The notes beneath the pieces were generated by a model. That model made no database searches. It was not told the DNA's origin and saw only the letters and a program-made list of their open reading frames with translations. From NCBI GenBank assembly GCA_964631145.1, contig CAZVXT010000001.1, forward strand, positions 127,151 through 191,150: 64,000 nt of DNA. The letters are read 5' to 3'. Position 1 is the stretch's first letter, and each line of letters opens with the position of its first letter. The DNA is from an uncultured Candidatus Saccharibacteria bacterium (GTDB taxonomy: Bacteria > Patescibacteriota > Doudnabacteria > UBA920). Shown here piece by piece: positions 3,001-22,485 of this stretch. Position numbers and translations under genes: made by a program.

Positions 3001-6000
3001 CCTGTAATAAATGACACTGATGCAGGTGGTAGTAATACTGGGTTTGGCTACGGTGTGCATAGTACTTTATCTGGATCGCCTATTTTAACCAGTGTTTCCA
3101 GTACCACTACTTTTAATACATATTCTGGTTATTTTACAAATAGTGCTACAACAACTGGGAATGCAAATCTTACATATAATTCTTATGGGGTATATGGGTC
3201 TACTACAGGTAACTTAACTACTACTGGAACAACAACTCATTACGCTGGTTATTTTTCTGCAACTGGAACCGCAGATATTAATTATGGTATTTATTCTACA
3301 GTTTCTGGTGCTACTACTAACTACGCAGCTATCTTAACTGGTGGCAACGTTGGTATCGGCACTACAGTCCCAGACAAACCTCTTGAAGTTAACAGCGCAA
3401 CAGGTGCTGGTATTAGAATAACCTACAATGATGCAGATGGTAGTGCAACTAACTACTCTGATTTCTCCGTATCATCTGGTGGTGACTTAACCATTGCTCC
3501 AAGTGGTGGGGATACTAACATCACTGGTAACTTGATTGTATCTTCCTTAACTTCAGGTGGTACTCAGTGTTTACAAGCAAACTCTTCTGGTGTTATCTCT
3601 GGCACAGGTAGTGCGTGTGGAGCCGGGGGTGGTGGGATGAGTATCGGTGGATCCATTACTTCTGCAACAGCGGGGTCTGTATTATTCGCTGGTGCGGCTG
3701 GTGTATTAGCACAAAACAATAATGATTTCTTTTGGGATAATACCAATAAGCGTCTGGGTATAAATACTACAGCAGCTCCTAGTGCAAGCTTGCATGTGGT
3801 TTCATCTGGTGCAAAAACTGTCGCGGATACTGCGTCTTTAGTATCTAACACTTCAACGTCTTCTACTGCATCAATAGATAAAATTGGACTTAGGGTTTCT
3901 TCTACTGGCAGTTGGACTGGTACGAGTGCAAACAATATTGCACTTAAAGTAGATCCTGCTACCGGGGGTACTCAAAATATGGATATATTTAGTGGTCCAA
4001 ATGCTGTATCGTTAGCATGGGCAGGTGGAGAGTCGTTCGGTAAAAATTATTTCTCCTCTTTGAATGCTAGCACTTCAAATGCTACTATGCTTGTTTTGAA
4101 TGAAAGCAATAGTACATCTTCCTTTACTCAGTATGGGGTATTTGGTAGCGCGGTTGGTTTGCATGCATCTGGTACGCGTACAAGAATTTCCGGTATGCAC
4201 TCATTTGCTTATCAAGAAGGGGATGGAAATGTTACACAGCTGCTCGGATATAGCGCCGGTTTACAGTCTGATACGAGTGGTACAGTTTCAATAATGGCTG
4301 CGTTTAAAGCAGATACTAATTATCGATCTGCGGGTACTGTTTCTTTAAACAGTGCAATATATTTAGATGACCAATCTGGTGTTGCAAATACAGCTGCCAA
4401 TAATTATCAAATTTATTCTAATACCACTAGTCCCTTTGTAGTGAGGGCTGATGGTAATGTCGGTATTGGGCTTATTGCCCCTACCGGATTATTACATGTT
4501 AGACAGACTGCTGACAGTACTAATACATCAACTCCAATTGCATTATCTGTTGATAGTATAGGTAGTGCAGGTGAGTTAACTGCAGCTTCTGGTAATCAAA
4601 TCTTTGCACAGATTGCGCCAGTGATTAACCAAAGTGCAACTGGTAGCTATCGCGCATTAGATGTTAACGTAACCGAAACTACTACTTCAAATGTTACAGG
4701 ATTAAATCGTTTGGCTGACTTGCGTGTTGGCGGTAGTTCTAAATTAGCAATTTCAAATAATGGTTCTGTTACATTACAAAACGCTTCTGGGTTATTTACT
4801 TCTAGCTTAAGCGCTGGTACTTTCCAAAACCATTTAGTGAGAAGTGATGATTTTGCAACTACATGGACAACAAGCAGTATTACTGCGTTTAGTAATGATA
4901 CTCAAATTGCTCCAGACGGAAGTACTTCTGCAGAAAGCTTGGCAACAAGTGGTAGTGGTGGTTATGTACAACAAGATACTTCAACAGCTACCTCTTCTAC
5001 TGATTACACTTTCTCTGTATGGGCTCGTTCTACAAGTGGTACCCAAAACTTTAGTATGAGAATAGATGGAACTACAGGTGGAACAGGTACAGAAGTAACT
5101 CATACTGCTACTACAAGCTGGCAAAGGTTTAGCATAACTCAAACTTTGACTGGTGGTTTTACAGGAAATGTGCGTGTTCGTATTTATCCTGGAACTTCTG
5201 CAAGCACTGGTACTATTTATGCTTGGGGTGCTCAATTAGAAAAAGCTTCAAATGTAAATGGCTATGCAAAAACAACCACAGCCGCACTAACTAACTATAA
5301 TCGTGGTTCTTCTATATATTCTAATTTAGATGCAGCGACTGGATTCTCTTATGGCAACAGAAATATTATTCAAATTCAAACAGGTAATAATATAGATGCT
5401 ACTTATGTTGGACAGTTAATTCGTGTGATTGATAATGATTGTGCTACTGATTGTGATAACACAACTAAAGGTTTAGAAGTTCAAGCTTTCAGCGGTACCA
5501 ACTTAGCAGGTATTAACATGGGTATTGATACTTATGGCTATACTTTCGGTTTGAAAGCAACTACTACAGCACAAGCTAGTAATGTAGCTCAACCTGCTGC
5601 AATCTTTGCAGATTTAGATAATGGTTCTGCAACAACAACTGGTAATGCAATTCGCGCTTACACTGATAATGCAACATCAGCAAACTTGGTAAGTATTTAT
5701 CAAGAAACTTCTGCTTATACAGGAACTTTGTTAGCTCTAAGTGCTGGTAATAATAGTGGTAGCTTTGACAGTGGTAACTTCTTAAACTTTACTAATAATG
5801 ATAATACTCCAGGTACTCGTGGTACTGTGTTTAATGTTGATTATAAAGGTTTGTTAACAGTTTCTCCTTCGGATGCAGATAATACAAAAGCAATTGTTAT
5901 CGATACTGAAGAAAGTACGGCTGGACAAAGTGTATTCGAAATAGTTTCTGATGTGACTACCAATGACTCGTTAAAACTTCATGCAGAGGCAGACGGTAGT

Positions 6001-7278: not shown

Positions 7279-7298
7279 ATATAGACTATAATAAATAT

Positions 7299-8360
7299 AT
7301 GAAATCTTTTCAGCAAGAAAAAAATAATAAAAATTATATGAACGGCGATTATCGTAGAATAATATTATTCGTGATGATTGGTACTTTGATTGGCTCAACT
7401 CTTACGACAGCTATTTTTTACAATAGAATTTTTGGTAATAATTCTTTGAAAAATAACCCATTAGCTATTACTAATCGTTTGGATACAGGTAAGTATAAGT
7501 TTATTAATCCTTTATTGGATTCAAGTTATGCGAATGAAAGTGAAACTCTAAAGTGGTTTCCTGCAGAGAGACAGTTAAAAAGCTCAATTCAAGATATTAT
7601 AGCTTCTAACCCTGAGATTAATACTTCAGTATTCTTTTTGAATCTCAGAAACTCAGGGTGGTTTGGTGTTAATAGCGCTGATGCTTTTATCCCCGCTAGT
7701 TTATTAAAATTACCAATGTTAATTTCTTATTATAAATTAAGAGAAAAAGAAAAAGATTTATTTGATCAGAGAATTACTTATCAAGGAGAGGATTACAATA
7801 AGTATAGAAAAATTGGAGAAGGTGGTATAGTTGCTGGAAAAACATATACAGTTAAAGAATTAATGAATGAAATGATTATTAATTCTGATAACAATGCATT
7901 GCAATTACTGTATAAGTATCGTCAAAACTCTCTACAATTAATATTTGATGATTTAAAAATTTCATTACCATCAACTGATAGCGAAATAGCTGATAAAGAT
8001 TTTGTAACAAGTCGCGATATCGCCCGCTTTTTATTGGTATTATATAACGCATCATATTTAAGCCATGATGATTCTGAAGAGGCATTAAAAACATTATCCC
8101 AAACTAGTTTTAAAGATGGATTAGTTGCCGGTATCCCAAGCAACATTAATGTTAGTCATAAGTTTGGGGAAAGAGAATTATCAGAAAATGGAACTGTAAA
8201 AAATGAGTTGCATGATTGTGGTATCGTGTATAATGAAAAAATTCCTTATATAGTTTGTATTATGACAAAGGGTAAAAATATTGATGCTCAAAAAACTGTA
8301 ATTCAGCAAATTTCTAAAAGAATTTACGAAGGTGTTAGTAAGTTTTCAAATCAAGAGTAA
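7299..8360 (+). CDS. Class A beta-lactamase-like / PBP-like serine hydrolase, membrane-anchored
   Basis: N-terminal TM helix. 'SLLK' (SxxK) and 'SDN' motifs lie ~60 residues apart, as in class A enzymes. A KTG-like 'KFG' lies ~100 aa further on. Confidence 0.6.
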   Translation: MKSFQQEKNNKNYMNGDYRRIILFVMIGTLIGSTLTTAIFYNRIFGNNSLKNNPLAITNRLDTGKYKFINPLLDSSYANESETLKWFPAERQLKSSIQDIIASNPEINTSVFFLNLRNSGWFGVNSADAFIPASLLKLPMLISYYKLREKEKDLFDQRITYQGEDYNKYRKIGEGGIVAGKTYTVKELMNEMIINSDNNALQLLYKYRQNSLQLIFDDLKISLPSTDSEIADKDFVTSRDIARFLLVLYNASYLSHDDSEEALKTLSQTSFKDGLVAGIPSNINVSHKFGERELSENGTVKNELHDCGIVYNEKIPYIVCIMTKGKNIDAQKTVIQQISKRIYEGVSKFSNQE

Positions 8361-8379: not shown

Positions 8380-11300
8380 ATGACAAAAATAAAAATAAAA
8401 TTAAATTATCAAAACTACATTAAAGCATTGTTATATGTTGGTGTTTTTATCGTTGCTTCATTATGGTTTTTGGGAAGTGCGCAAAAAACGTTTGCTGCTA
8501 CAAGAACATGGACTGGCATTACAAGCAATTTATGGTCTGTTGCAAGTAACTGGGGTGGAACAGCGCCTGTAACTGGGGATGATTTGGTATTTCCTAGCGG
8601 TGCATCTAACTTATCCAATGTTAACGACTTAACAGAAAACACAATTATTAACTCCATTACTTTTACTGGCAGTGGTTATACCATTTCTGGTAATAAATTT
8701 ATTCTTGGAGCAGGTGTTGCTGGTATTACTGATAGTGTGTCTTCTGGTGGTAATACTCTTAGTTTGGATATTCGTTTGGATTCCACTCGTGACTTTTATG
8801 TCACAAACTCCACTGAAGCTTTAACTATAAGTGGAAGAATTGACGGTGTTGGTGGTATAAACAAAGAGGGATTGGGGACATTGATATTATCTGGTTCTAA
8901 TACTTATGGTGGTACTACAAAAATTAACACAGGTGTGATTAATGCAAGAACTAATACAGCACTGGGTACAATTGCGGCTGGTACAGAAGTTGTCGGTGGT
9001 GCAGCTTTGGAACTACAAAATTCTATTAGTATTAGTTATGAAGCTTTAACCTTAAGAGGTTATGGTGTATCTGGTGGAGGGGCTCTTCGTAATGTTGGTA
9101 ATAATAACACTTTTGGTGGTTTAATAACTTTAACTTCGGCAGGTGGTACAGAAATTTCCTCAGACTCTGGAACTCTTACAATTACAGGAGGTATTACAGG
9201 CGCTTTTCCTTTAGTTTTTGATGGCGCTGGTAATATAACTTTTTCAACCACACCTATTGCCACAGCTGCCGGTATTGTTACAAAAAATGGACTCGGTACA
9301 GTAACATATAATTTCCCTAATACTTATACTGGATTGACTACAGTTAATGCTGGTACGCTTGCTTATGGCATTGATAATGCAATTTTATCAGGAGCAGTCA
9401 CTGTGACTGGTGGTACATTAAACATTGGAACTTTTTCTGATATGGTTGGAACAGTAACTTTGGGTACTTTGGATTTGGCAAACGGAACAATTACTGGCTC
9501 GACCGGTATTTTGAGCAGTGCCACTTGGACAGTTTATAATGGAACCATTAGTGCAATTATTGCTGGTGATGGAGGTGCTCTTACAAAAAGTACGTCAGGA
9601 ACTGTGACTCTTACAAGAGCTAATCAGTACACTGGAGCCACTACTATTAGTTTAGGTGTTTTAAAAATTCAAGATAGCAACGCTTTAGGATTAATTGATG
9701 GTATTACCACAGTTACTGCGGGTGCAACTTTGCAAGTCGACGGAGATGGTTTATCTATTCCTGAATATATTACTTTTTCTGGTGCGGGGCATTTGTATTA
9801 TGGAGCTATTTTAAATAGCACAGGTAATAACACTCTGACAGGACTATTGACTATGGGCGCTACAGCAATGATCAAATCTAATATTGGAACTACTCTTACT
9901 GTAGACGGTAAAGGGCTTTTGGCTTCTGGTGTTCCATTGTATATAGGAGGTGCTGGTGATATTACCTTTACTTCAACTGCTCCTATATATGGAACCACTG
10001 CATCTTTAATAAAAAATGATAGCGGTGTTTTGAGAATACAATCTTTTAGCAACTACACTGGAGCTACTACTATAAATAGAGGTACCTTAGAATTAAGTTC
10101 TGCGGGTGCTTTGCCCTCTTCTGCTATAACAGTTAACTCCGGCGGCGTATTTACTATAGATAATAGCTCTATCTCTGCACTTAATCGTATGAGTGAAACG
10201 GCTGCGTTTACCATGAACGGTGGAAGATTTAATTTTATAGGTAGTGCTACTAACAGTACTTCTGAGTCTACCGGTGCTTTAACACTTTCCTCGGGACACA
10301 ATATTATTACTATTACCCCTGGTTCGGGCGGTTCTACTACTATGACTTTTGCAAGCTTGTCTCGTACTGCAGGTGCTACTGCGTTATTCCGTGGTACAAA
10401 CTTTGGCTCTACCCCAGCAGCTAATGTTTCTACTTTAATGTTTACCACAGCCCCTACCTTAACTGGGGCATCAGGGTCTGCAGGTACAACCACTGTAAGT
10501 GTTATTAAAGGTGTTTTCGGAGATGGTTATTTAAATGGTAATGGCAGTGATATGGTCACTTACAACGTTGGAAATACTAATGGTGTAAGACTTCTTAATG
10601 GTGCTGGGAATTCTGGAGAATATGCTACTACCTTAACAACAAATGCTAACGTCAAATTAACTGCAGATGTTGTAGCTAGTACAGCGAGTATTAATTCATT
10701 AATTTTAAATGGGTTTTCTATTACTAATCCTGGTAGTGCTGCTACATTAACAATCGCTTCTGCTTCTTTATCGGGAAATGTCTTGATAAATTCAGCTACT
10801 AGTATCTCTGGGTCTAATACTACGATCGGAATTACAACGTTGGAATTAGATATATTAGCCACTGCTAATGGAACTATTTCTGCTGTTGTTGGTACTGCGG
10901 TAACTGGATCTATGACGTTAAGTGGAACAGGCAATATTACATTAAGTGCAGCTAGCGCTTATACAGGAACAACTACTATAAATAACGCAACTCTTACTTA
11001 TGGTGCAAGTAATGTTTTGTCTAGTGGTGGTGTCACAGTAAATGGTGGTACATTAGACATTGGTGCAAATAGTGACACAGTAGGTGCAGTTATTTTACAA
11101 AATGGTGTAATTACAGGAGGTGTCGGTATTTTGACCGGAACTTCATATAGCTTTAGAGAAGGTACTGTTAGTGCAATTATTGCTGGAGCCGTTACGGTAA
11201 CCGTTGTGGCAACTAATGCTGCGTCTGATGCAGTTGTCACTATGACAAGAAACAATACTTATACTGGTGCCACTGCGATTTCTAGTGGAATTTTAAAATT

Positions 11301-14300
11301 AGGGGGAGCAGGTGACGGTACAAACTCTCCTTTAGGCACCATTGCAGCAGGTACGACGATAGCTAACGTTGCAGCTCTTGATCTTAATGGATTTACATTG
11401 TCGACCGCGGAAGCAATAACATCTATGAACGGATTAGGATATGGATTTGGGTCTACCGTGTCTGCTGGTAATAGTAATATGGGAGCATTAATGAATGGTT
11501 CTGGTTCATCGGTTAGTTATAGCGGAGCTATTACCTTGGCTGCGGCGTCACGTATTAATGCAGATTATGGCAGCTTAACTATAAGTAGTGCAATCTCCGG
11601 TGCTTTTGGTTTAACTGTTGGTGGTTTTAGCGATAGTACTTTTTCTGGCGTTATCGGTACAGGTACTGGAACTATTACAAAAGATGGTATTGGAGTATTA
11701 ACTCTTTCAAATAGTAATACTTACACTGGCGTAACTACTATTAGCGTAGGAACTGTAAAGTTGGGTACTGCAGGTGGTGCAACTAATACTCCTTTAGGTA
11801 CAACAGCTGGTGCAACTACTGTAGCTTTGGGCGCACGTTTAGATTTGGCTGGTTTTACCTTGGGGGCTGCTGAACCTTTAACTCTAAATGGAGTTGGATA
11901 TGGTCTCGGTGATTTTGCTAGCGGTGCTTTAATAAATAGCTCAATTGCCAGCGTAACTTATAGTGGACTACTTACGTTAGGTTCGGCATCAACTATTAAG
12001 GCTGATTCGGGAAATATTAGTTTGAGTAATGCGGGAACCATAACTGGTGCAACTTTTGCGTTAACATTAGGTGGAGTTGGAACAGGGACAGTGTCTAGTA
12101 TTATTGGAACGACTACAGGTACTGTAACAAAAATTGATACTGGAACATGGACTCTTGCCGGGGTTAATACTTATACAGGTGCAACTAACGTCAACCTTGG
12201 AACTTTAAAATATGGAGTTAATGATGCAGCTGGTGGCGGACCTCTTGGAACAGCTGCTGCAGGAACAAGCGTTTTTAGCGGTGCTGTTTTAGACTTTAAT
12301 GGTTTTTCTACAGTTACTTTAGCTGAGGTGCTTACTATAAATGGACGAGGAATTGGTAATGGCGGTGCTATTGTAAATAGCGCAGGAGGTCTTAAGAGTC
12401 AACTTGGTGGAGTTGTGTTAGGTAGTGATTCTCGCATTTCAATATCATCAGGTACATTAACATTTAATGGAGGTGTAACTGGTGCCTTTGCTTTGTATGT
12501 TGGTGGAGCAGGAAATGTGACATTTACTACCGGGGTGCTTGCTATGGGTGCAGGGTCATTAGTCAAACAAGGAGCGGGAACTGTAACGGCAACAGGCACT
12601 CATACTTATACCGGTGTGACGCGTATTGATGCTGGAACTTTTGCATATGGAAGCAATGTTACGGTTCTGGCAGGTACCAATCTAACTGTAGCTGGAGGTG
12701 TATTTGATATGGCTGCTAGTACTGATACTATTGGTACAGTAACTTTGATTGATGGGACTATACAAAATGGTACTCTGACAGCTACAACTAGCTACACTTT
12801 TGAAAAGGGTACTGTTAGTGCTGTTCTCGCAGGTACGACTTTGCCAATGACTAAAAATACAAATAACACCCTAACTTTAACAGCTGCAAATACAAATACT
12901 GGAACTTTAACCATTAATGCTGGTAGTGTTGTATTTAGTGGTTCCGGTAGTGCAACGGCGATTACAGGTTTAACTCTAAACTTAGGATCAACGTTAACAT
13001 TAGATAATTCTACTACAGCAGTTGCAAGTCGCCTGCCAGATGCGTTGGCTGTAACTATGAATGGAGCTAATTTCAACTTTATTGGTAATACTGCTGCAGC
13101 TTCATCAGAAACAGCTGGTGCGTTGACTCTTTCCTCAGGTCATAATGTTGTGACTATTACTCCTGGTGCTGGTGGGTCTACAACAATGACTTTTGCGAGT
13201 TTTGCCCGCACCGCTGGTGCAACAGTGCTCTTTAGAGGTACCAGCCTTGGTGCAACTCCAGCTGCTAATGTTTCTACACTGTTGTTTACTACATCAACTG
13301 GTATATTAACCGGTGCCGCAGGTGCCGCTAACTCTACTACTGTTAGTGTAATTAAAGGTGCCTTTGGAGACAGTTCTTTAAGTGGTAATGGAAGTGATAT
13401 GGTTACCTATAATACAGGAAATACTAATGGCTTAAGACTATTGAATGGCGCTGGTTTTAGTGGGGAGTATGCAACAAACTTGGCTACATTAAACTCTAAT
13501 GTAAAATTATCTGCTGATGCTGCTGCAACCACACAAAGTATAAACTCTCTTATTTTAAATGGTTTTTCTATTACTAATCCAGGAACTGCTCAAACTCTTA
13601 CTTTAGCTTCTGCATCACTTGCAGGAAATATTTTGATGAATTCTGCTACCAACATAGCTGGTGCTAATGCAACGATTGGTATTACGACGTTAGAATTAGA
13701 TATCTTAGCTACTGCCAATGGTACGGTGTCTGCAGTAGTTGGTACAGCTGTGGCAGGTTCGTTGGTTCTTAGTGGAAGCGGTAATGTAACCTTTAGCGCA
13801 GCTAATGCTTATACCGGTACAACTTTTATAAATAATGCAACTCTAACATACGGCGCAAGTAATGTACTGTCTAGCGGTGGTGTAACCATGGTTAGCGGTA
13901 CTTACAATTTAAATGGTAATTCTGATACAATTGGGGCTTTGGTGGTGAATGCAGCAAGGATTGATAGTGGTGCTGGGACTTTAACTTTTAGCGGCTCGTT
14001 TACTAGCACAGCAAATAATAATGTAACTACCATTGTATTGGGTAATTTGGCGTTGGGTGGGGCTGGAACTTTTAACATTGGAAATGGATTAATGGATAAC
14101 GATGTTGTTATTTCTGCAGTTATTAGCGGTGCTACTACTTTGACTAAATCAACTGGAGCTGGTGTTTTACTTCTTTCAGGTAGTAATACTTACACTGGTT
14201 TAACTACAGTTAGTGCTGGTACTATTCGTCTAGGTGCTACGGGAGGCGCTACTAATACACCACTTGGCACGACAGCCGCCGGTACTACAGTTTCTGGTGC

Positions 14301-17300
14301 AAGCTCTGCTTTAGACCTAAATGGGTATACGTTGGGAACTGCGGAACCACTCACTTTAAGCGGAGCTTTAGCTACAGGAGCTCTGCAAAACACTTCTAGT
14401 ACCGCGGTTACTTATAGTGGATTGATTACTTTAGGTGCTGCTAGTACTATAATTTCTAACTACGGTGATATTAATATTTCTAATGGTGGTACTATTACAG
14501 GTGCAACATTTGGTTTAACTATTGGTGGTGCGGGTAATGGAACATTATCTAGTATATTAGGAACCACTAGTGGAACTTTAACAAAAAATGGTCTTGGTGT
14601 GTGGACAGTCTCCGGTTCCAGTACTTATACAGGGTTAACAACCATTAGTGCTGGAACTCTAAGGTTGGGTTCAGCAGGTGGTGCAACCAATACTCCTTTG
14701 GGTACAACAGGTGGTGCTACTTCAATAACTAGTGGTGCAATTTTGGATTTAAATGGATTTACATTAGGAACTGCTGAGGCTCTTACTATTAACGGTACCG
14801 GTATCGCAAGTATCGGAGCGCTTATTACAAGCTCCGGAAGCGCTACTTCTTATAGCGGTGCCATTACTATGGGTGCTGCTTCGCGTGTAGCTAATTACGG
14901 TAGTGGTGAATTTACCATAACTGGTGCGATATCTGGAAACTTTGCATTAACTACTGTAACTGTAGGTGGAATAACTCAATCTTCTGGTAGTGTTTGGTCT
15001 GGTACTGGGGCTTTGGTAAAAGAAGGATCTGGTGTATTAACTTTAGCTGGTCAGAATTCGATGACCGGTGCAATGACTGTAAGCACAGGAACCTTAAGGC
15101 TTGGTGCTAATGGCGGAGTTACAAATACACCATTGGGTACTATAGCGGGTGGAGTTACGGTATCGGCAGGTGCGGTACTAGATTTATCAACTTTTACAGT
15201 AGGCGGTGCTTCAACTTGGGAACCTTTAACTTTAAACGGTAGTGGTTTATTAAACGGTGGGGCATTGATAAGTAATTCTTCAACAGGTAGTAGCTTTGCA
15301 ACAATAGCCCAGACTAACTCTCGCATTGTTAATAATGGTGCTGGGACATTAACTATTACTGGTGCTGTAACAGGTGCTTCAACATTTTGGGTTGGTGGTT
15401 CTGGAAATACAGCCATTTCTGGTGCACTTAATACAGCTGGTTTGTTATTAACTAAATACGGTTCTGGGACATTAACTCTTAGCAGTGCTGTAAATATAAA
15501 CACTTCTTTGGTTCGTATTAATGCTGGTACTTTGGCTTACGCTGTGGCAGATGCGCTTTCAACCCCGGCTGTAACTGTAGCCGGAGGTACGTTAAATTTA
15601 AACGGATTTAATGAAACAAATATCGGAGCTATCACATTAATTGATGGTAGTATAGTTAACACTGGTGCAGCCGCTACACTAACTTCTACAGCTACATATA
15701 CTTTAGAAAACGGCACAATAAGCGCTGCCCTTGGTGGTACTGTTGTTGCTGCTATTGCAAAAAATACTGCCGGCAGAGTTATACTGTCTGGTGACAATTC
15801 GTTCAGCGGTGCGTCTGCTACTATTGCGGTGAATGCAGGGTATCTTAATTTGCGCCATAACAATGCTTTAGGGGCGGCTGCCAGTGCTAATACGACTACA
15901 ATTTCTGGTGGAGCAACCGTGGAATTAGAAAACAATATCACTATTCCAAGTGTTAAAGCATTTACTGTTAACGGCACTGGTGTTGCAAAATCAGGTGCAA
16001 TCAGAAACGTTAGTGGTACCAATACTATTTCTGCAAATATTACTTTAGGTTCAACCAATGTTCGTATTAACTCTGATAGTGGCACTTTAACAATTCCAAC
16101 TATATCAGGAAATACCTTTAATGTAATTTTAGGAGGTTCTGGTGATACTACAGTTACAGGCGCTATCGGTACTACTAGTGGTTCTGTAACAAAAGATGGT
16201 TCTGGGACCTCTACATTATCTGGTACTAATACTTACACAGGAAGCACTACTATTATTTTAGGAACTATTGCAGCAAATAGTTCTGCATCAATCGGTAATG
16301 GTAGTTCTACTAATACTTTAATTTTTAATGGAGGAACCTTAAAAGCTACTGGTACTATTACGTCTCTTGCGACTAGAGCAGTAAGTTTATATGGCAATGG
16401 AACAATTGACACCAATGGAAATAGTGTTAGCATAGCTGGTACAGTTGGATCTATCGGTGGACTTACAAAGAGTGGTCTTGGTACATTAACTCTCACTGGC
16501 GTTACTGTAATTGGAGGGGACTTAAATATTTCTGCTGGTACTTTTGTAGCACCAACTTCGCTAACATTAAATGGAAATTTGAGTAATAGCGGTACATTTA
16601 CCCATAGCAGTGGAACTGTAACTATTACACCTACAACACCATCTAATACTATTAGTATTACGGGAAGTTCTGGTATTACATTTAATAACCTGACTAATAC
16701 CACACCGGGGTCAACTATTAAATTCCAAAACGGTAATACATATGCATTTAGTGGAACCTTAACTTTAACGGGAACGGAAACTGCTCCTATATGGTTAAGC
16801 AGTGTGTCTCCTGGATCTCAATGGAATGTAACTTTAGCCACTACAGCACTGACCTGGGTTGCTGTCCAAGATTCTAATTGCAGTGGTGGACAATCCATTA
16901 CTGCAGGAAATCAAACTATCCTTGATCAAGGTAATAATACCGGGTCTTGTTGGTTGTTTATTAGCCGTAGTTCTGGCGGCGGTGGTGGACCAAGTGAGGG
17001 CGGTCCTGGTGCTGGTGGTAACAGCGGTGGTAATGGAGGTAGTGGTAACGGTAATAGTGGTAGTGGAGGTAATGTTCAGGCTACAGCTACTGCAACTTTA
17101 CAAAGCGGTGCGGTAAATAATGTAATTTTAGGAGTTGGTGGCAGTGGATATACTGATATTCCATTAGTATGTTTCAGCGGTGGTTCTCCTAGCGTAGATG
17201 GAGTTGTAGTCGCAATTATATCTGGTGGGGCAGTAACAGGATTTAATTTAATCTCAGGGGGTAGCGGATATGGATCCATACCTTTAGTAATTATTGCAGC

Positions 17301-17382
17301 TCCTGGAACAAGTGGTGGTACATGTGGAAGCAGTGTTGGCGGAGGCGGAGCTGGAGGTGGAGGCGGCGGAGCGGCACCATAA
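8380..17382 (+). CDS. Giant (3000 aa) secreted protein built of autotransporter-associated beta-strand repeats (PATR/TIGR02601-like), with a Gly-rich low-complexity C-terminus
   Basis: Signal/TM anchor 'LLYVGVFIVASLWFLGSA'. Dozens of 'GTLTLSGxNTYTGxTTIxxGTLxLG' repeats. ~280-aa internal segmental duplication. C-terminal 'GGGGGPSEGGPGAGGNSGGNGG...GGGGAGGGGGGAAP'. Confidence 0.85.
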   Translation: MTKIKIKLNYQNYIKALLYVGVFIVASLWFLGSAQKTFAATRTWTGITSNLWSVASNWGGTAPVTGDDLVFPSGASNLSNVNDLTENTIINSITFTGSGYTISGNKFILGAGVAGITDSVSSGGNTLSLDIRLDSTRDFYVTNSTEALTISGRIDGVGGINKEGLGTLILSGSNTYGGTTKINTGVINARTNTALGTIAAGTEVVGGAALELQNSISISYEALTLRGYGVSGGGALRNVGNNNTFGGLITLTSAGGTEISSDSGTLTITGGITGAFPLVFDGAGNITFSTTPIATAAGIVTKNGLGTVTYNFPNTYTGLTTVNAGTLAYGIDNAILSGAVTVTGGTLNIGTFSDMVGTVTLGTLDLANGTITGSTGILSSATWTVYNGTISAIIAGDGGALTKSTSGTVTLTRANQYTGATTISLGVLKIQDSNALGLIDGITTVTAGATLQVDGDGLSIPEYITFSGAGHLYYGAILNSTGNNTLTGLLTMGATAMIKSNIGTTLTVDGKGLLASGVPLYIGGAGDITFTSTAPIYGTTASLIKNDSGVLRIQSFSNYTGATTINRGTLELSSAGALPSSAITVNSGGVFTIDNSSISALNRMSETAAFTMNGGRFNFIGSATNSTSESTGALTLSSGHNIITITPGSGGSTTMTFASLSRTAGATALFRGTNFGSTPAANVSTLMFTTAPTLTGASGSAGTTTVSVIKGVFGDGYLNGNGSDMVTYNVGNTNGVRLLNGAGNSGEYATTLTTNANVKLTADVVASTASINSLILNGFSITNPGSAATLTIASASLSGNVLINSATSISGSNTTIGITTLELDILATANGTISAVVGTAVTGSMTLSGTGNITLSAASAYTGTTTINNATLTYGASNVLSSGGVTVNGGTLDIGANSDTVGAVILQNGVITGGVGILTGTSYSFREGTVSAIIAGAVTVTVVATNAASDAVVTMTRNNTYTGATAISSGILKLGGAGDGTNSPLGTIAAGTTIANVAALDLNGFTLSTAEAITSMNGLGYGFGSTVSAGNSNMGALMNGSGSSVSYSGAITLAAASRINADYGSLTISSAISGAFGLTVGGFSDSTFSGVIGTGTGTITKDGIGVLTLSNSNTYTGVTTISVGTVKLGTAGGATNTPLGTTAGATTVALGARLDLAGFTLGAAEPLTLNGVGYGLGDFASGALINSSIASVTYSGLLTLGSASTIKADSGNISLSNAGTITGATFALTLGGVGTGTVSSIIGTTTGTVTKIDTGTWTLAGVNTYTGATNVNLGTLKYGVNDAAGGGPLGTAAAGTSVFSGAVLDFNGFSTVTLAEVLTINGRGIGNGGAIVNSAGGLKSQLGGVVLGSDSRISISSGTLTFNGGVTGAFALYVGGAGNVTFTTGVLAMGAGSLVKQGAGTVTATGTHTYTGVTRIDAGTFAYGSNVTVLAGTNLTVAGGVFDMAASTDTIGTVTLIDGTIQNGTLTATTSYTFEKGTVSAVLAGTTLPMTKNTNNTLTLTAANTNTGTLTINAGSVVFSGSGSATAITGLTLNLGSTLTLDNSTTAVASRLPDALAVTMNGANFNFIGNTAAASSETAGALTLSSGHNVVTITPGAGGSTTMTFASFARTAGATVLFRGTSLGATPAANVSTLLFTTSTGILTGAAGAANSTTVSVIKGAFGDSSLSGNGSDMVTYNTGNTNGLRLLNGAGFSGEYATNLATLNSNVKLSADAAATTQSINSLILNGFSITNPGTAQTLTLASASLAGNILMNSATNIAGANATIGITTLELDILATANGTVSAVVGTAVAGSLVLSGSGNVTFSAANAYTGTTFINNATLTYGASNVLSSGGVTMVSGTYNLNGNSDTIGALVVNAARIDSGAGTLTFSGSFTSTANNNVTTIVLGNLALGGAGTFNIGNGLMDNDVVISAVISGATTLTKSTGAGVLLLSGSNTYTGLTTVSAGTIRLGATGGATNTPLGTTAAGTTVSGASSALDLNGYTLGTAEPLTLSGALATGALQNTSSTAVTYSGLITLGAASTIISNYGDINISNGGTITGATFGLTIGGAGNGTLSSILGTTSGTLTKNGLGVWTVSGSSTYTGLTTISAGTLRLGSAGGATNTPLGTTGGATSITSGAILDLNGFTLGTAEALTINGTGIASIGALITSSGSATSYSGAITMGAASRVANYGSGEFTITGAISGNFALTTVTVGGITQSSGSVWSGTGALVKEGSGVLTLAGQNSMTGAMTVSTGTLRLGANGGVTNTPLGTIAGGVTVSAGAVLDLSTFTVGGASTWEPLTLNGSGLLNGGALISNSSTGSSFATIAQTNSRIVNNGAGTLTITGAVTGASTFWVGGSGNTAISGALNTAGLLLTKYGSGTLTLSSAVNINTSLVRINAGTLAYAVADALSTPAVTVAGGTLNLNGFNETNIGAITLIDGSIVNTGAAATLTSTATYTLENGTISAALGGTVVAAIAKNTAGRVILSGDNSFSGASATIAVNAGYLNLRHNNALGAAASANTTTISGGATVELENNITIPSVKAFTVNGTGVAKSGAIRNVSGTNTISANITLGSTNVRINSDSGTLTIPTISGNTFNVILGGSGDTTVTGAIGTTSGSVTKDGSGTSTLSGTNTYTGSTTIILGTIAANSSASIGNGSSTNTLIFNGGTLKATGTITSLATRAVSLYGNGTIDTNGNSVSIAGTVGSIGGLTKSGLGTLTLTGVTVIGGDLNISAGTFVAPTSLTLNGNLSNSGTFTHSSGTVTITPTTPSNTISITGSSGITFNNLTNTTPGSTIKFQNGNTYAFSGTLTLTGTETAPIWLSSVSPGSQWNVTLATTALTWVAVQDSNCSGGQSITAGNQTILDQGNNTGSCWLFISRSSGGGGGPSEGGPGAGGNSGGNGGSGNGNSGSGGNVQATATATLQSGAVNNVILGVGGSGYTDIPLVCFSGGSPSVDGVVVAIISGGAVTGFNLISGGSGYGSIPLVIIAAPGTSGGTCGSSVGGGGAGGGGGGAAP

Positions 17383-17392
17383 ATAAATTTTA

Positions 17393-17424
17393 AAACTCAA
17401 GTTTTACAACTTGAGTTTTTTATT
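17393..17424 (+). terminator. Rho-independent terminator after the 3000-aa gene
   Basis: Hairpin AAACTCAAGTT-ttac-AACTTGAGTTT followed by TTTTATTT. Confidence 0.8.
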
Positions 17425-17488: not shown

Positions 17489-18418
17489 TTGATTTTTAAA
17501 GGACAAAAAAATAAAAAAATAAGTAAAATTATCAAGTTATATATATTGATAGTAATTTTATTTTTCCCATCATTTTTAAGTATAAATATTGCACATTCAG
17601 CTTCGCAAAATTTGGATGTAACGGCTGTTGTAGTTGATGAAAATGCTTTACCGAGTTCAGGTAGTGGGACTCTTACCGGAACAGTTGTATTGACTGGAAA
17701 TATTTTTCCAGGAGCTAAACTAACATTGCTCAAAGACGGTGTTATTGTGACGACTTTGGTAGTGGGTGGTGATGGCAAATTTCAGATTACAATGAATAAC
17801 TTAAGCTTTGGCTCTTACCAAGTATCTTTACTTGCTGAAGATCCTCAAGGAGTTCAATCTGCACCTTTTACCACTAATGTTAATTTACAAAACACCCAAC
17901 CTATTTCTCTTAACAATGTTTTAATACCTCCAACTTTAAGTTTTAAGTCCACTGTAATTTCTCAGTCAGAAAACATTAATGCTTATGGATATTCTGTACC
18001 AAACTCTACAGTGAGTTTGGAATTACCGGGAAGCGGGCTTTTGGCAAATGCTAATACTGATAGTAATGGTTACTATCAAATTACTACGCATTCTAGTTTA
18101 ACTCCCGGAACTTATTTATTTAGAACTAAAGTTAAATTTAAGGATGTGTATAGTTTATATAGTAAGCCAGTTCAAGTTTTAATTTATAATGGACCACCTG
18201 TGCCGGGAGATGTTAAAGATGATGGAAATCCAAAACCCCCTCCGCAATTTTCTTCTTGTATGGATTTTAATAAGGATCGACGGGTAAATTTGGTAGACTT
18301 CTCTATATTATTATTTTGGTTTAATAAAAGTGAACCCCCAAGTAGTGTAGATTGTAATAAGGATAGGGTGATAGATATCAAAGATTTTAGTATCTTAATG
18401 TATTTTTGGACAGGATAA
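17489..18418 (+). CDS. Secreted Ig-like/Big-domain protein with a C-terminal dockerin-like tandem Ca-binding repeat
   Basis: N-terminal hydrophobic anchor. C-terminus 'DFNKDRRVNLVDFSILL' and 'DCNKDRVIDIKDFSILM' fits the dockerin DxNxDxxVNxxDxxxL pair. The start is TTG at 17489; an alternative start is possible. Confidence 0.65.
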   Translation: MIFKGQKNKKISKIIKLYILIVILFFPSFLSINIAHSASQNLDVTAVVVDENALPSSGSGTLTGTVVLTGNIFPGAKLTLLKDGVIVTTLVVGGDGKFQITMNNLSFGSYQVSLLAEDPQGVQSAPFTTNVNLQNTQPISLNNVLIPPTLSFKSTVISQSENINAYGYSVPNSTVSLELPGSGLLANANTDSNGYYQITTHSSLTPGTYLFRTKVKFKDVYSLYSKPVQVLIYNGPPVPGDVKDDGNPKPPPQFSSCMDFNKDRRVNLVDFSILLFWFNKSEPPSSVDCNKDRVIDIKDFSILMYFWTG

Positions 18419-19347
18419 TGAAGTTATCTATAAAAAAAACTTATTTAATATTGATAATATCTTTGTTGATGCCAGCATGTGTTCATGCGGCTGATTTGGG
18501 TTTTGCCCCTGATGTGGTTTCTCCAAATCAATCTCAAAGTTTCGTTGTAAGTGTGGTCGTGGGAAGTGCAGAACCTATTAATGCTATTGAGGGACAGCTT
18601 CTAGTTAAGTCACCATTGTCTGTAAAAGAGATTAACATCGGATCATCTATAGTCACTTATTGGGTTAAGCAACCAGTTTGGGATCCTGTCAAAAAGACTA
18701 TTTCTTTCGGAGGCACTATACCAGGTGGTTATAATGGTAAAAACGGTGTCTTATTTAATGTTATTTTTAATGCTTTAAACTCAAGCGATGATACAATAGA
18801 TGCCTTAAAATTTATCAAAACTCAAGCTTTGATTAATGACGGGTTGGGTAGTGTAGCCAATATTAATACCACAACATTATCTATCAAGAAAGATACTGAA
18901 GCTTCTAACATCTTAAAAGATATAGAGTTATATGCTGATGATTATAAAAAAGATAGCGTGCCTCCAGAAGTTTTTTACCCTCAGGTATCTCGCGATGACC
19001 GTGTATATGTTGGAAAATGGTTTATAGTATTTTCTACAACAGATAAGCAAAGTGGTGTTGATAGATATGAAATTCAAGAAAGTAAATCAGGAAATATTGA
19101 TTCGCAAAAATGGAAGATCGCAGAAAGTCCTTATGTTTTAGAGGACCAACAACTACAAAGTTATATATATGTTACCGCTATAGATAAGCAGGGTAATGAA
19201 AGAATTATAAAAGTATCTCCAAAGTATTTAATACCATGGTACGATAAGTATAAGAACGCTTTGTATGTGCTAGGGTTGTTTTTGATAATTATAGTAATTT
19301 TTATTGTTAAAAGATTTATCTATAAAAAGAATGAACTTGAAGTTTAA
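18406..19347 (+). CDS. Cohesin-like domain protein with a C-terminal TM anchor. Start 18406 or 18418 (ATGA overlap with the upstream stop).
   Basis: Signal peptide 'MKLSIKKTYLILIISLLMPACVHA'. Cohesin-like core 'SFVVSVVVGSAEPINAIEGQLLV...'. Shares an 'FSTTDxxSGxDRYEI' Ig/FN3-like module with the next gene. C-terminal TM 'LYVLGLFLIIIVIFIV'. Confidence 0.6.
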   Translation: MDRIMKLSIKKTYLILIISLLMPACVHAADLGFAPDVVSPNQSQSFVVSVVVGSAEPINAIEGQLLVKSPLSVKEINIGSSIVTYWVKQPVWDPVKKTISFGGTIPGGYNGKNGVLFNVIFNALNSSDDTIDALKFIKTQALINDGLGSVANINTTTLSIKKDTEASNILKDIELYADDYKKDSVPPEVFYPQVSRDDRVYVGKWFIVFSTTDKQSGVDRYEIQESKSGNIDSQKWKIAESPYVLEDQQLQSYIYVTAIDKQGNERIIKVSPKYLIPWYDKYKNALYVLGLFLIIIVIFIVKRFIYKKNELEV

Positions 19348-21385
19348 GAAAATTTTATTATTACCAATTTTTGCATTTGCTATATTTTTGTCATGGACAA
19401 TTTTTACTAATGTTGCCAGTGCGGCGAGTTTAAATATCAGTCCAGGCTCAGGTACTTATAAAGTAGGTGACACCTTTGAAGTATCTGTTTTGTTAAATAC
19501 TCAAAATCAAGAAGTTAATGCTGTGCAGATGGAGTTGGCGTTTCCTCCTGATAAGTTGCAATTAGTTTCTCCGTCGACCGGGACTTCTATTATTAGCATT
19601 TATACAACACCTCCAAAGTATGATAATGCAAAAGGTGTTGTACAGATTATTGGTGGAATTCCAAATGGTGTAAATGTTCCTAGCGGGTTAGTTACAAAAT
19701 TAATTTTTAGAGTTAAAAGTTTAGGGCAGGCGACTATTAGGTTTACTGGGCAAAGCCAGGTTTTGCTAAACGATGGTAAGGGTACAAATGCTTTAAACAA
19801 TAGCAATGGGGCAACTTTTAAACTTGAGTTACCTGCACAGGCTGGTCCAATTGTAATTTCAGATTCGCACCCTGACCAAGAAACTTGGTATAAAAATCAA
19901 GCTGTAACTTTACAATGGGATTTGGATTTGCCAGCTGCCAATGGTTATAGTTACTCGATGAGTGATAACCCATCTGATGAACCGGATGATTCTATCGACT
20001 CTACAGATACAAAAATAACTTATAAAAAAGTCCCTGATGGTATAAATTATTTCCATATTAAGGCGATGCGTGGTGGTAAGTTTGGAGGTGTAAGTCATTA
20101 TGCTGTTAAAATTGACAGTAGTGCTCCTGCCTTGTTTCCTGTTCAGATTTCTCCATCAGACCACACATTTATTACTAGCCCATTTGTTCAATTTTCAACA
20201 ACTGATACTTTATCTGGACTAGATAGATACGAAATTAAAGTTATTCCTTTAAAAATTGAAGGGCGTCCAAAAGCCGCTGAGGGGGATCAATTGTTTATAG
20301 AATCTCAAAGTCCTTATCAAATCCCTAATTTACTAAATGGAACTTACGAGGTTGTGGTAAGAGCTTACGATAAAGCTGGTAATATCCAAGAAGTTAATCA
20401 TAAATTGTATATTACAGATTCGTGGTTTTGGTTTTTGAGTCAAGATGGCGTAACCTTGCCAGGAGGAAAACAAGTTAGCTGGTCATGGTCTGTAGGTATC
20501 TTACTATTCTTGTTGATGATTCTAATCATTGGTTCATATTATGTTCGCAAATGGTATCGCAGAACTCATCATCAGGTTGTTAATAATCACCTTCCTGATG
20601 CTATTGCGGCGCAGCTTACTGAGCTTCAAACTTATAGAGAAAGATATGGCAAATTGGCCGCTGTTTTATTGCTAGTAATCGGTTTATCTCTATTTTCTAA
20701 ATCTACAATAGTTAACGCACAACAAGTGACTCCTCCGGTAATTTCTAGCTATTCTGCAAATATTAAAGATGACGAACTTTTTTATGTATCTGGGAGAACT
20801 ACAGAGCCAAATAGTACAATAGTCGTACATTTACAAAGTTTGGTTGATGGAAGTAGTTTCGATTTTAACACTCAAGCAGACAAGCTGGGTGATTGGACGT
20901 ATCGCAGCAGCGATTTCTTGGCGGGAGGGAGATATATAGTTTGGGCTCATACTAAATTAGGGGATCAATTATCTACTCCAAGCCCTCAAGTGGAGCTTGA
21001 TGTTAAGCCAGTGGCAATAAATTGGGGTAATAGCCGCATCACATACCAAACAATTTATATTACTTTTATTGCGATTTTAGCATTATTATTGTTTGCACTA
21101 ACGGCTTATATAATTATTCACGCAATCTTACTAAGAAAGCGCAAAAAAGTATTTGCTAACAATTTAAGACAGGCTGAAGATTCGATTAAAAGAGGTTTTT
21201 TGGCACTCAGGCGCGATATTGAAGCAGAGCTTTTGTTGATACGAAAAGCTGGGCTTAATGCAGAGTTGTCAGGCGAGCAAAAAGTTCGAGAACAGCAACT
21301 ATCTGATGATTTAAGGAATATCGAAAATTTGGTTGGCAAAGAAATTTGGCAGCTAGAAACTTTTGAAAAATTGCCAAGTAATTAA
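19331..21385 (+). CDS. Cohesin-like domain membrane protein with Ig-like modules, several TM helices and a C-terminal coiled-coil region
   Basis: Signal peptide 'MNLKFKKILLLPIFAFAIFLSWTIFTNVASA' (ATG at 19331; the track start 19304 is TTG). Cohesin-like 'VGDTFEVSVLLNTQNQEVNAVQMELAFPPDKLQLV'. Shared FN3/Ig-like module with the previous gene. Three TM segments. Confidence 0.6.
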   Translation: MNLKFKKILLLPIFAFAIFLSWTIFTNVASAASLNISPGSGTYKVGDTFEVSVLLNTQNQEVNAVQMELAFPPDKLQLVSPSTGTSIISIYTTPPKYDNAKGVVQIIGGIPNGVNVPSGLVTKLIFRVKSLGQATIRFTGQSQVLLNDGKGTNALNNSNGATFKLELPAQAGPIVISDSHPDQETWYKNQAVTLQWDLDLPAANGYSYSMSDNPSDEPDDSIDSTDTKITYKKVPDGINYFHIKAMRGGKFGGVSHYAVKIDSSAPALFPVQISPSDHTFITSPFVQFSTTDTLSGLDRYEIKVIPLKIEGRPKAAEGDQLFIESQSPYQIPNLLNGTYEVVVRAYDKAGNIQEVNHKLYITDSWFWFLSQDGVTLPGGKQVSWSWSVGILLFLLMILIIGSYYVRKWYRRTHHQVVNNHLPDAIAAQLTELQTYRERYGKLAAVLLLVIGLSLFSKSTIVNAQQVTPPVISSYSANIKDDELFYVSGRTTEPNSTIVVHLQSLVDGSSFDFNTQADKLGDWTYRSSDFLAGGRYIVWAHTKLGDQLSTPSPQVELDVKPVAINWGNSRITYQTIYITFIAILALLLFALTAYIIIHAILLRKRKKVFANNLRQAEDSIKRGFLALRRDIEAELLLIRKAGLNAELSGEQKVREQQLSDDLRNIENLVGKEIWQLETFEKLPSN

Positions 21386-21394
21386 TAATAAAAG

Positions 21395-22438
21395 ATGAAT
21401 TTATTTTTCCGACAAAAAATTATTATCGCTGTTGTGGTTGTAGTGCTGCTTATAGCCAATGTATGTCTGTATAAATTGGTTTTAATGCAGATTAACGGCA
21501 CATCTAACGAAAGGCTAGAGGCAAGGACTTTGGACTTAGAAGATGATATTAGAGATCGCATAGAAATTTACTCAAATTTTATGTACGATGTTGCTGCATT
21601 ATTATCTTCGACCGATAATTTGAAACAGTCTGAGTGGGAACATTATATGGAGACGGCTAAAATGCTTGATCGATACCCAGGCATGCGTTCGGTTGTTTAT
21701 GCTCCCGTCATTGACGCAAAGCAGCGAACTATTTTTGAAGCCACAATTAAGCAATCGTCTGATTCTAGTTTTAGCATCTATCCAGATAAAATTACAGAAC
21801 AGGTTGCTCCTGTATTATTTATAGAACCTAAGACAAGAGATGGTAAACCTTTGAAGGTTGGCTTTAATATTTTATCTGATAGCTCTCGTGCTGCTGCTGT
21901 TAATTTTGCTAGAGATAATAATGAATTGGCTATTACCCAAAAAGTCGGTTTGATTGGTGATCTAAATGGGGTTTCAGAGCCAGGATTTGTTATATATTTG
22001 CCTATTTATAAAAAGAATATGCCTCTCAATTCTGTAGATCAAAGAAGGGCGGCATTTATGGGGGTTGTGGCAACTGGTATTAGGGTGAGCGAGTTAGTAA
22101 ATGGTTTGGTCGGCAATTATTACAAAGATTTATATTTTCAAATTTTTGATGGTCATAATGGTGAAACTCTTAGATCCGAGAATATGATGTATAACTCTGG
22201 ATCAGAAAAAGTTTTGCAACCAGGCTACGCTCCTACATACTCAAAAGTCACTAAAATAGATTGGGCTAACAATTCTTGGTATATTAGATATATTACACCT
22301 CCAAATTTTGGATTAACAAATTTTGAAAAATCTTTACCATTAATAATGACTGGACGAAATATTGTAATTTCTATCTTACTTCTTTGGTTATTATGGAGAA
22401 CTATGGTTAACAGAAATAAAAGGCATCAATCAGTATAA
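21395..22438 (+). CDS. CHASE-domain sensor protein without an output domain (TM - CHASE - TM)
   Basis: 'MLDRYPGMRSVVYAPVI', 'GFNILSDSSRAAAVNFARDNNELAITQKVGLI', 'GFVIYLPIYKKN', 'QRRAAFMGVVATGIRV' match the CHASE consensus. TM helices at both ends. No kinase, cyclase or HTH domain. Confidence 0.6.
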   Translation: MNLFFRQKIIIAVVVVVLLIANVCLYKLVLMQINGTSNERLEARTLDLEDDIRDRIEIYSNFMYDVAALLSSTDNLKQSEWEHYMETAKMLDRYPGMRSVVYAPVIDAKQRTIFEATIKQSSDSSFSIYPDKITEQVAPVLFIEPKTRDGKPLKVGFNILSDSSRAAAVNFARDNNELAITQKVGLIGDLNGVSEPGFVIYLPIYKKNMPLNSVDQRRAAFMGVVATGIRVSELVNGLVGNYYKDLYFQIFDGHNGETLRSENMMYNSGSEKVLQPGYAPTYSKVTKIDWANNSWYIRYITPPNFGLTNFEKSLPLIMTGRNIVISILLLWLLWRTMVNRNKRHQSV

Positions 22439-22447
22439 GCCTTATTC

Positions 22448-22485
22448 AAAAACCTCATGAACATAAGTGCATGAGGTTTTTTATT
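22448..22485. terminator. Bidirectional terminator between the CHASE gene and valS
   Basis: AAAACCTCATG-aacataagtg-CATGAGGTTTT flanked by A/T runs. Confidence 0.7.

Follow-up and report, generated by a model that had tools for sequence, protein, structure and literature searches.

This study revealed a compact cohesin-dockerin module in a 64,000-nt stretch of DNA from an uncultured Candidatus Saccharibacteria bacterium (contig CAZVXT010000001.1, positions 127,151 to 191,150; hereafter, the window). The module comprises three adjacent genes: A, which encodes a predicted secreted protein ending in a dockerin, and B and C, which encode cohesin proteins with transmembrane (TM) segments. They are followed in the window by a fourth gene, D, which encodes a CHASE protein. 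From its recurrence in related genomes, we regard A-B-C as a module conserved across the Patescibacteria, or candidate phyla radiation (CPR). We further consider it fairly probable that A, B and C constitute a non-cellulosomal cohesin-dockerin tether of the CPR cell envelope.

Domain organisation of the predicted cohesin-dockerin proteins

Gene A (17489-18418; like all features of A to D described here, on the plus strand) encodes a protein of 309 aa with a Sec-type signal peptide (aa ~1-38), two Ig-like domains, a Pro-rich linker and a C-terminal dockerin. The two Ig-like or prealbumin-like beta-sandwich domains (aa ~61-136 and 162-215; 17669-18133), which we refer to as the cargo, match Big_6 (39.1 bits) and CarboxypepD_reg (36.7 bits), and Pfam revealed no catalytic domain in A, the Ig-like sandwiches being all that accompanies the dockerin. 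The tail (aa 257-309; 18257-18415) comprises 53 residues, ends in ..YFWTG and contains two D-x-N-x-D-x6-D calcium loops, each with a 'DFSIL..' helix after it; the two loop-helix segments are DFNKDRRVNLVD-FSILL.. and DCNKDRVIDIKD-FSILM... A tandem segment of two 12-residue EF-hand-like calcium loops (D1, N/D3, D5, D12) with helices is the arrangement of type I dockerins.

The whole of A scored 19.8 bits against the Dockerin_1 hidden Markov model (HMM; PF00404), which is under the gathering score of 22.9. The tail alone scored 26.2 bits, which is over this cut-off, and 41 out of 41 orthologous tails matched the same model (E of 0.01 or better; best 6.5e-12). Single-sequence searches of the PDB with A and with C were uninformative, and profiles were needed. 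The 16 best matches of a dockerin-tail profile among PDB sequences were all dockerins, with 2y3n_B at 2.5e-10 and the CelS dockerin at 2e-8; 2jnk was also among its matches (1.2e-4). Across the 41 tails, the calcium-ligand positions D10, D14, D21 and D50 are invariant and N12 and D39 are at least 90% conserved, while the helix motif 'D[FL]SI[LM]..YYW' and the terminal 'WTG' are specific to this family. The original prediction had described A as a secreted Ig-like protein with a dockerin-like tandem calcium-binding end, which is what the Big_6 and PF00404 matches indicate, and we classify the C-terminus of A as a true dockerin.

Gene B (18418-19347) encodes 309 aa when read from its ATG, the ORF (open reading frame) itself opening upstream at TTG 18406. 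The protein comprises a signal peptide, a cohesin domain, an Ig-like 'FSTTD' module and a single C-terminal TM anchor (aa ~279-301; 19252-19320; hydropathy and model). The cohesin domain (aa 25-157; 18490-18888) was recognised from an AlphaFold2 model based on a 100-sequence alignment, with a predicted local distance difference test (pLDDT) score of 91.5. It forms a nine-stranded jelly-roll, and about 35 solved cohesins were the best Foldseek matches of this sandwich, including 2w1n (E 1.3e-7) and 2xdh (TM-score 0.74, the highest value); OlpC (4dh2) and several ScaB cohesins were also among the top matches. The dockerin-binding face of cohesins is the 8-3-6-5 sheet, and the family-invariant residues of the B cohesin are located on strands 3, 5 and 6 and in the loop after strand 8. 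The Ig-like 'FSTTDKQSGVDRYEI' module of B (aa 189-266; 18982-19215) was delimited from the model and from the alignment of B with C, and shows a weak OmpL47-type match.

Gene C (19331-21385) encodes a polytopic cohesin protein of 684 aa; its ORF opens at TTG 19304, and the ATG at 19331 agrees with the database protein P0001. Hydropathy and a structural model (pLDDT 82) give the order signal peptide, cohesin, Fn3-like domain, Ig-like domain, TM1, loop, TM2, Ig-like domain, TM3 and tail. The cohesin domain (aa 32-166; 19424-19828) matches PF00963 with 33.1 bits, against a cut-off of 24.1, over aa 47-169 of the ORF, and its predicted jelly-roll superimposes on 6kgf_C with a TM-score of 0.75 and a root-mean-square deviation of 2.7 Å. 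It is followed by an Fn3-like domain seen in the model (aa 175-261; 19853-20113), which carries the motifs 'SHPDQETWY ... YFHIKA' and belongs to no Pfam family, and by the Ig-like 'FSTTDTLSGLDRYEI' module (aa 271-361; 20141-20413; Big_13, 26.8 bits), a paralogue of the module in B. A membrane hairpin (20480-20713; hydropathy and model) then comprises TM1 (aa 384-406), a cytoplasmic loop with the pattern 'LP..I..QL.EL..YR.KYGK' and TM2 (aa 443-461). The model places a second extracellular Ig-like domain at aa 470-570 (20738-21040) and, at 21050-21382, TM3 (aa 574-596) with a tail of ~88 aa that forms a cytoplasmic helical hairpin (aa 597-684). Foldseek searches with the whole model of C were dominated by generic multi-Ig arrays, and some C homologues are already annotated in databases as 'cohesin domain-containing protein'.

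A Minisyncoccia relative (locus L093, 8834-10549) encodes a C homologue of 571 aa without the TM1-loop-TM2 hairpin. Its outside parts are joined directly, which agrees with the topology proposed for C. The A-like gene before this C homologue keeps the dockerin tail (..DFSIIAYYWTG), no giant is encoded upstream, and the B homologue beside it (P0152) bears the name MCSN_0760 of Ca. Microsyncoccus archaeolyticus.

The cohesins of B and C are paralogous (26% identity over 178 aa, E 7e-11), and both proteins share the Ig-like module 'FSTTDxxSGxDRYEI' (29% over 160 aa, E 3e-10). The cohesin-like nature of B and C and their shared module, both part of the original prediction, were thus recovered by the PF00963 match of C, the two predicted jelly-rolls and the paralogy. 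The C-terminal TM anchor that it had assigned to each cohesin protein was found in B, as a single segment, and not in C, which has three TM segments.

This composition bears on the description of the system as 'cellulosome-like'. The description suits a tether and fails otherwise: there are no enzymes, there is no multi-cohesin scaffoldin, and 64 kb contain one dockerin. A miniature cellulosome that assembles polysaccharide-degrading enzymes on the cell has the presence of cohesin and dockerin modules in its favour, and nothing more. The HMM scan of the window gave one dockerin and two cohesins in total, with no second dockerin at E up to 10, and the dockerin of A is also the sole one found in each related locus. 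A carries Ig-like sandwiches where an enzyme would be expected in a cellulosome, and B and C have one cohesin each. Matches to a carbohydrate-binding module (CBM), S-layer homology (SLH) domain or LPXTG motif were not found in B and C, which have TM helices instead. The neighbouring genes in the window encode giant repeat proteins, a beta-lactamase-fold protein, valS and tsaD. As there are neither dockerin-bearing carbohydrate-active enzymes nor a multi-cohesin or CBM-bearing scaffoldin nor SLH or sortase anchoring, and just one dockerin, we rejected this extremely improbable reading.

Conservation of the module and co-variation of its domains

Named homologues were found exclusively in Patescibacteria/CPR, namely in Doudnabacteria, which hold the nearest named homologues of C, and in Jorgensenbacteria, Brennerbacteria, Spechtbacterales and Microsyncoccus. 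Four loci with pre-called genes encode a large or giant protein, a dockerin protein, a ~300-aa protein and a ~690-aa protein, with C identities of 43-61%. A metagenome scan with an alignment query gave 80 further loci, for which ORFs and HMM calls were made in this analysis (individual loci are referred to by L numbers). Synteny was counted in the 51 non-redundant loci that extend 2.5 kb or more beyond the start of C. A dockerin-tailed ORF was found in 49 of the 51, a B paralogue in 45 and both in 44. Wherever both were present, the order was always dockerin gene, B, C on one strand. The co-occurrence of the genes in relatives, a check proposed with the original prediction, thus came out in favour of that prediction. 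Where at least 7 kb upstream of C were available (30 loci), 19 loci had an ORF of at least 1000 aa upstream.

In two loci, B and C are fused into a single polypeptide of 940-950 aa (L058, 5081-7933; L083, 1124-3943). These fusions, together with the paralogous Ig modules, suggest that B and C act together. As a separate observation, the TM anchor of B and the signal-peptide-like segment of C that follows it form, in both fusions, a membrane hairpin resembling the internal one of C.

Conservation was compared across 40 loci, and the same set was used for a mirror-tree comparison. The median pairwise identity was highest for C (48%) and the dockerin tail (45%) and much lower for B (24%) and for the cargo of A (18%), the length of which ranges from 91 to 395 aa in relatives. 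Within B, the cohesin evolves faster (31%) and the Ig module slower (49%); the cohesin of C, with 58%, is the most conserved of the family's domains. The distance matrices of the dockerin tail and of the B cohesin correlate with r=0.60, as compared with r=0.18-0.28 between the dockerin tail and the Ig module of B or any domain of C. The bootstrap difference in favour of the B cohesin over the C cohesin was 0.36 (0.20-0.51), and the partial correlation between dockerin and B cohesin remained 0.56 after removal of a phylogeny proxy based on C. The Ig module of B does not share this signal, so that mere co-transfer of the neighbouring genes A and B fails to account for it. Within the limits of this small sample, the co-variation points to docking of A on the cohesin of B.

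Several observations weigh against a tether of this kind. A Pfam scan of B returned neither a cohesin nor any other match, and the profile of B, searched against PDB sequences at E up to 10, gave four matches which, albeit all cohesins, had weak E values of 0.011-0.78. The mirror-tree signal comes from just 40 loci. It may be due in part to the wider dynamic range of the two domains, both of which evolve fast, or to joint transfer of neighbouring gene segments. The C cohesin, which is conserved best of all domains, does not co-vary with the dockerin in any special way. No cohesin or dockerin was detected by HMM in the two giant proteins encoded upstream of A, which are linked to the module by adjacency, and a terminator-like hairpin separates their genes from A. 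Finally, it is through surface location alone that the module connects to host attachment.

The lack of co-variation of the C cohesin would also be expected if B and C were structural or assembly components of the CPR envelope, such as anchors for the S-layer, the cell wall or the giant proteins, with cohesins that bind something other than the dockerin of A. We consider this unlikely, and likewise its corollary, in equal measure, that the dockerin of A is a calcium-stabilised module with another partner. The conservation of C, including its cytoplasmic parts, is that of a housekeeping protein and unusual for an adhesin anchor, and the poly-Gly tail found on the giant proteins of about a dozen loci (see below) could be a ligand or a sorting signal. 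Nevertheless, no gene accompanies C more faithfully than the dockerin gene, the co-variation of the dockerin is specific to the B cohesin, and cohesins are essentially known as dockerin receptors. Moreover, the giant proteins to be anchored are missing in 11 of the 30 loci with long flanks and in L093. We therefore retain the cohesin-dockerin tether as the preferred reading.

The cytoplasmic parts of C and the CHASE protein D

With regard to the inside of the cell, the cytoplasmic loop and tail of C show pairwise identities of 42% and 47.5%, respectively, and a profile of the tail matched nothing in the PDB and nothing credible in Pfam. Being polytopic and having a conserved cytoplasmic tail, C is, as modelled, more than a passive anchor.

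Gene D (21395-22438) encodes 347 aa with a TM segment (aa 8-26), a CHASE domain (aa 75-257; PF03924, 132.6 bits), a second TM segment (aa 316-334) and a stop. The match covers positions 2-183 of the 189-position CHASE model, i.e. the full domain between two TM segments. D ends 13 residues past TM2 and contains no cytoplasmic transmitter of the kinase, cyclase or GGDEF/EAL type, as had been predicted for this TM-CHASE-TM protein. The stop codon of D lies 46 nt before that of the convergent valS, which leaves no room for a downstream remnant of an output domain. A full search with HMMER against 1.84 billion representatives placed 14 clusters of 473-519 aa nearest to D. All seven members for which Pfam domains or the sequence were examined have the composition CHASE plus PAS; farther relatives are histidine kinases. 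We assign D, as the PAS-less member, to a small family of CHASE-PAS proteins of 473-485 aa, which are encoded behind C in the clade of the window only. The alignment of D with this family extends through TM2, and D stops at the position where the ~130-residue PAS domain of the other members starts. About 11 of the 150 best matches are 420 aa or shorter, some of them possibly fragments; a CHASE protein without a transducer, which the original prediction had called unusual, is hence uncommon and not unique.

A CHASE-PAS gene follows C directly, at 0-9 nt, in L005, L008, L089, L090, L091 and L092, with identities down to 29%, and a valS/tsaD neighbourhood is common to all loci with this arrangement. 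Three loci of the clade of the window (L006, L009 and L010) have no CHASE gene, nor has any other clade in the set. We regard D as a clade-specific operon member of which the window copy alone has lost its only cytoplasmic domain. It may work via its TM and outside parts or may be a decaying gene, both being equally possible. In the same clade, a single-TM protein of 124-130 aa is encoded after C or after the CHASE-PAS gene (L006, 12086-12466; L008, 13526-13915; L009; L090, 3750-4124). It is missing from the window, where one deletion may have removed both this gene and the PAS-coding part of D.

These features raise the question of whether the module is a trans-membrane sensing device, in which contact on the outside, made by A and the cohesins or by a CHASE ligand, is relayed inward by the cytoplasmic hairpin of C. 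The conservation of the loop and tail of C, for which no relatives were found in the PDB or Pfam, would fit such a role, which we nonetheless hold to be rather unlikely. The same doubt applies to its extension to the clade of the window, where the CHASE(-PAS) protein would be a co-receptor signalling by hetero-oligomerisation. The CHASE-PAS gene stays adjacent to C even at the lowest identities and even where an ABC-efflux operon is inserted behind it (L092), and no member of the CHASE-PAS family of D has an enzymatic output. However, most carriers of the module, among them the three loci of the same clade named above, have no CHASE gene, and the window copy is without its only cytoplasmic domain, as expected of gene decay in a reduced genome. 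A bolder version, which we judge to be decidedly unlikely, goes beyond a passive tether: A-B-C would be a CPR-wide trans-envelope coupling device in which the co-evolving dockerin and cohesin of A and B supply lineage-specific recognition outside, the invariant C relays attachment or load across the membrane by way of its hairpin and cytoplasmic helical tail, and a CHASE(-PAS) co-receptor participates in one clade. If true, this would be the first case of a cohesin-dockerin system serving in signalling or mechanical coupling in episymbiotic bacteria.

Operon structure and genomic neighbourhood

The ORFs of A, B, C and D were all recovered on the plus strand where the original prediction had placed them, three tightly linked genes being followed by a fourth. 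The ATG of B overlaps the stop codon of A (TAATG at 18416-18420). The overlap between B and C is 17 nt, and a gap of 9 nt separates C from D. The terminator-like hairpin upstream of the four genes (17392-17419, plus strand) was found by a hairpin scan between the gene of the 3000-aa giant protein and A, and has a 12-bp stem and a T run. Another hairpin with a T run (approximately 22449-22480; no strand assigned) is located between the convergent D and valS. It was missed by the scan, its loop being 10 nt, and was read directly from the sequence; it is a probable bidirectional terminator for D and valS. Judging from the overlaps, the spacing and the two bracketing hairpins, A to D are one operon and predicted to be co-transcribed. 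A promoter scan of the locus returned matches at chance level in this AT-rich DNA.

Two giant proteins are encoded upstream of the operon, as originally predicted. The first is a 2421-aa ORF without a Pfam match, followed by a 353-aa Beta-lactamase2-family gene (together 13-8360, plus strand). The second is a 3000-aa surface protein (8380-17382, plus strand) with 14 PATR beta-helix repeats by HMM and a poly-Gly tail, ..GGGGGGAAP. As neither matched a cohesin or dockerin HMM, we ruled out the giants as dockerin- or cohesin-bearing partners of the module.

The poly-Gly C-terminus of the 3000-aa ORF (17245-17379) recurs elsewhere. A large protein with a ..GGGGGG[A/E/G/S][A/S]P-stop tail is encoded directly upstream of the dockerin gene, B and C in about a dozen loci, comprising, besides the window, L002, L005, L006, L008, L009, L010, L013, L017, L020, L033 and L042. 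Among all ORFs of the 90-odd loci, a Gly run at the end is nearly confined to the large proteins in this position; the exceptions are two unrelated ORFs, which lack the ..[AS]P ending. The ..[AS]P tail could be a sorting or attachment signal. The Beta-lactamase2 gene located between the two giant ORFs (7299-8360, plus strand; 116 bits; class A beta-lactamase/penicillin-binding protein fold) has homologues upstream of the module in seven loci, with two copies in L006, and a link of this gene to the Gly-tailed giants is conceivable. The cargo of the dockerin protein has homologues among the domains of the upstream giants in some loci. In L074, this cargo (6746-7666; aa 45-202) shares 49% identity with an internal domain (aa 161-323) of a giant of 2311 aa encoded in L042 (796-7731). 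Cargo and giants thus appear to draw on a common pool of surface domains.

Three further kinds of genes recur around the module in related loci and have no counterpart in the window. GIY-YIG nuclease-family ORFs of ~90-115 aa are found in eight loci, ~1.1 kb upstream of C near the junction of the dockerin gene and B. Examples are L008 (8738-9070, minus strand), where the ORF lies between the dockerin gene and B, and L049 (9642-9914). Their position suggests a recurrent mobile insertion at this junction. Two families of ~140-aa single-TM proteins are encoded directly upstream of the dockerin gene in 22 loci (for instance L002, 8148-8567; L048, 4182-4622), and a family of ~300-aa proteins is present in 15 loci, which by eye shows a signal peptide, an apparently beta-rich ectodomain and a TM anchor. 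Neither the ~140-aa nor the ~300-aa families gave a match in a Pfam search.

Elsewhere in the window, the segment 37032-40649 contains an AEP-like primase gene (37032-37622, minus strand) and a DUF4238/SEC-C gene (38204-39334, minus strand). Both genes lie in the part of the window that is poorest in GC (0.296 at 38-40 kb), beside its only tRNA gene (tRNA-Glu, 40575-40649, minus strand), and the segment could be an integrated mobile element.

Proposed mechanism and significance

In the mechanism that we propose, A, B and C would be exported by their Sec signal peptides. B and C would be retained in the cytoplasmic membrane with their cohesin ends directed outward, whereas A would be released and then recaptured by insertion of its calcium-binding dockerin into a cohesin, most likely that of B. 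Recapture would display the lineage-variable Ig-like cargo of A at the cell surface, beside the giant proteins encoded upstream. C would be the slowly evolving core, its cohesin probably holding an invariant partner, and its conserved cytoplasmic loop and tail could connect the assembly to a component of the cell interior. D would be a clade-specific addition, the PAS-less remnant of a CHASE-PAS membrane sensor sited after C. The whole assembly would belong to a surface apparatus that includes the giant proteins. The domains, the operon, the synteny, the pattern of conservation and the co-variation of the dockerin with the B cohesin were observed, and the topology follows from hydropathy and models. 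From these features we infer that A binds B or C, that calcium is needed for this, that the cargo is displayed on the surface, that the module takes part in contact with a host or partner, and whatever activity D may have. The central prediction is that the tail of A binds the B cohesin in a calcium-dependent manner and with lineage-matched specificity.

CPR bacteria, or Patescibacteria, are very small, mostly uncultured and live attached to other cells. To our knowledge, how they build their surface and hold their partners is largely unknown. Given the housekeeping-like conservation of the anchor, the hypervariable cargo, the frequent giant neighbours and the gene order kept across distant CPR, the module is a concrete and testable candidate part of the CPR attachment apparatus. 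It is present in a lineage with enrichment-cultured members, as illustrated by MCSN_0760 in L093. A literature search found no paper describing this dockerin-B-C module in CPR. A preprint on giant genes of Omnitrophota was considered and set aside, as it concerns a different dockerin-like repeat and hence does not describe the present module.

Comparison with known systems

The closest likeness is to non-cellulosomal pairs, namely the Archaeoglobus fulgidus cohesin (2xdh) and the GH84 toxin/glycosidase complexes of Clostridium perfringens (2w1n, 2jh2, 2ozn/2jnk). These pairs also consist of single cohesin and single dockerin modules that serve protein-protein attachment in organisms which do not degrade cellulose, and in 2w1n, as in B and C, the cohesin is followed by an Fn3/Ig module. 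In contrast to these pairs, the cohesins described here belong to integral membrane proteins, of which C is polytopic and has a conserved cytoplasmic tail. Moreover, A carries its dockerin without an enzyme domain, and the fixed operon of three genes has been kept throughout an entire bacterial radiation.

The anchoring scaffoldins of Clostridia and Ruminococcus (OlpC, SdbA, ScaE; type I, II and III dockerins) resemble the present system in that a cell-bound cohesin captures, here by prediction, a secreted dockerin protein via a duplicated calcium-binding segment. As in cellulosomal dockerins, the two repeats are near-symmetric, which permits a dual binding mode. Unlike cellulosome scaffoldins, which are attached by SLH domains or sortase, B and C are anchored by TM helices. 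They also differ in that one dockerin stands against two cohesins, with neither enzymes nor a CBM, and in the helix motif and terminal 'WTG' of the present dockerin family.

CHASE (PF03924) receptors include plant cytokinin receptors, bacterial histidine kinases and diguanylate cyclases. D resembles them in its full CHASE domain between two TM helices, and differs in having no cytoplasmic domain, its nearest relatives carrying a PAS domain only.

With regard to C, a likeness in architecture alone is seen with the metazoan adhesion family TMEM132, which combines a cohesin domain, Ig domains, a membrane span and a cytoplasmic tail (PMC6030884). As in C, the cohesin-like and Ig-like domains are extracellular; unlike C, TMEM132 is eukaryotic and is not known to have a dockerin partner.

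The distinctive features of the CPR module are its TM-anchored cohesins, a polytopic conserved partner with a cytoplasmic tail, a fixed operon and a dockerin-to-cohesin ratio of 1:2. With these, the known uses of the cohesin-dockerin pair would be extended to integral membrane proteins with cytoplasmic tails.

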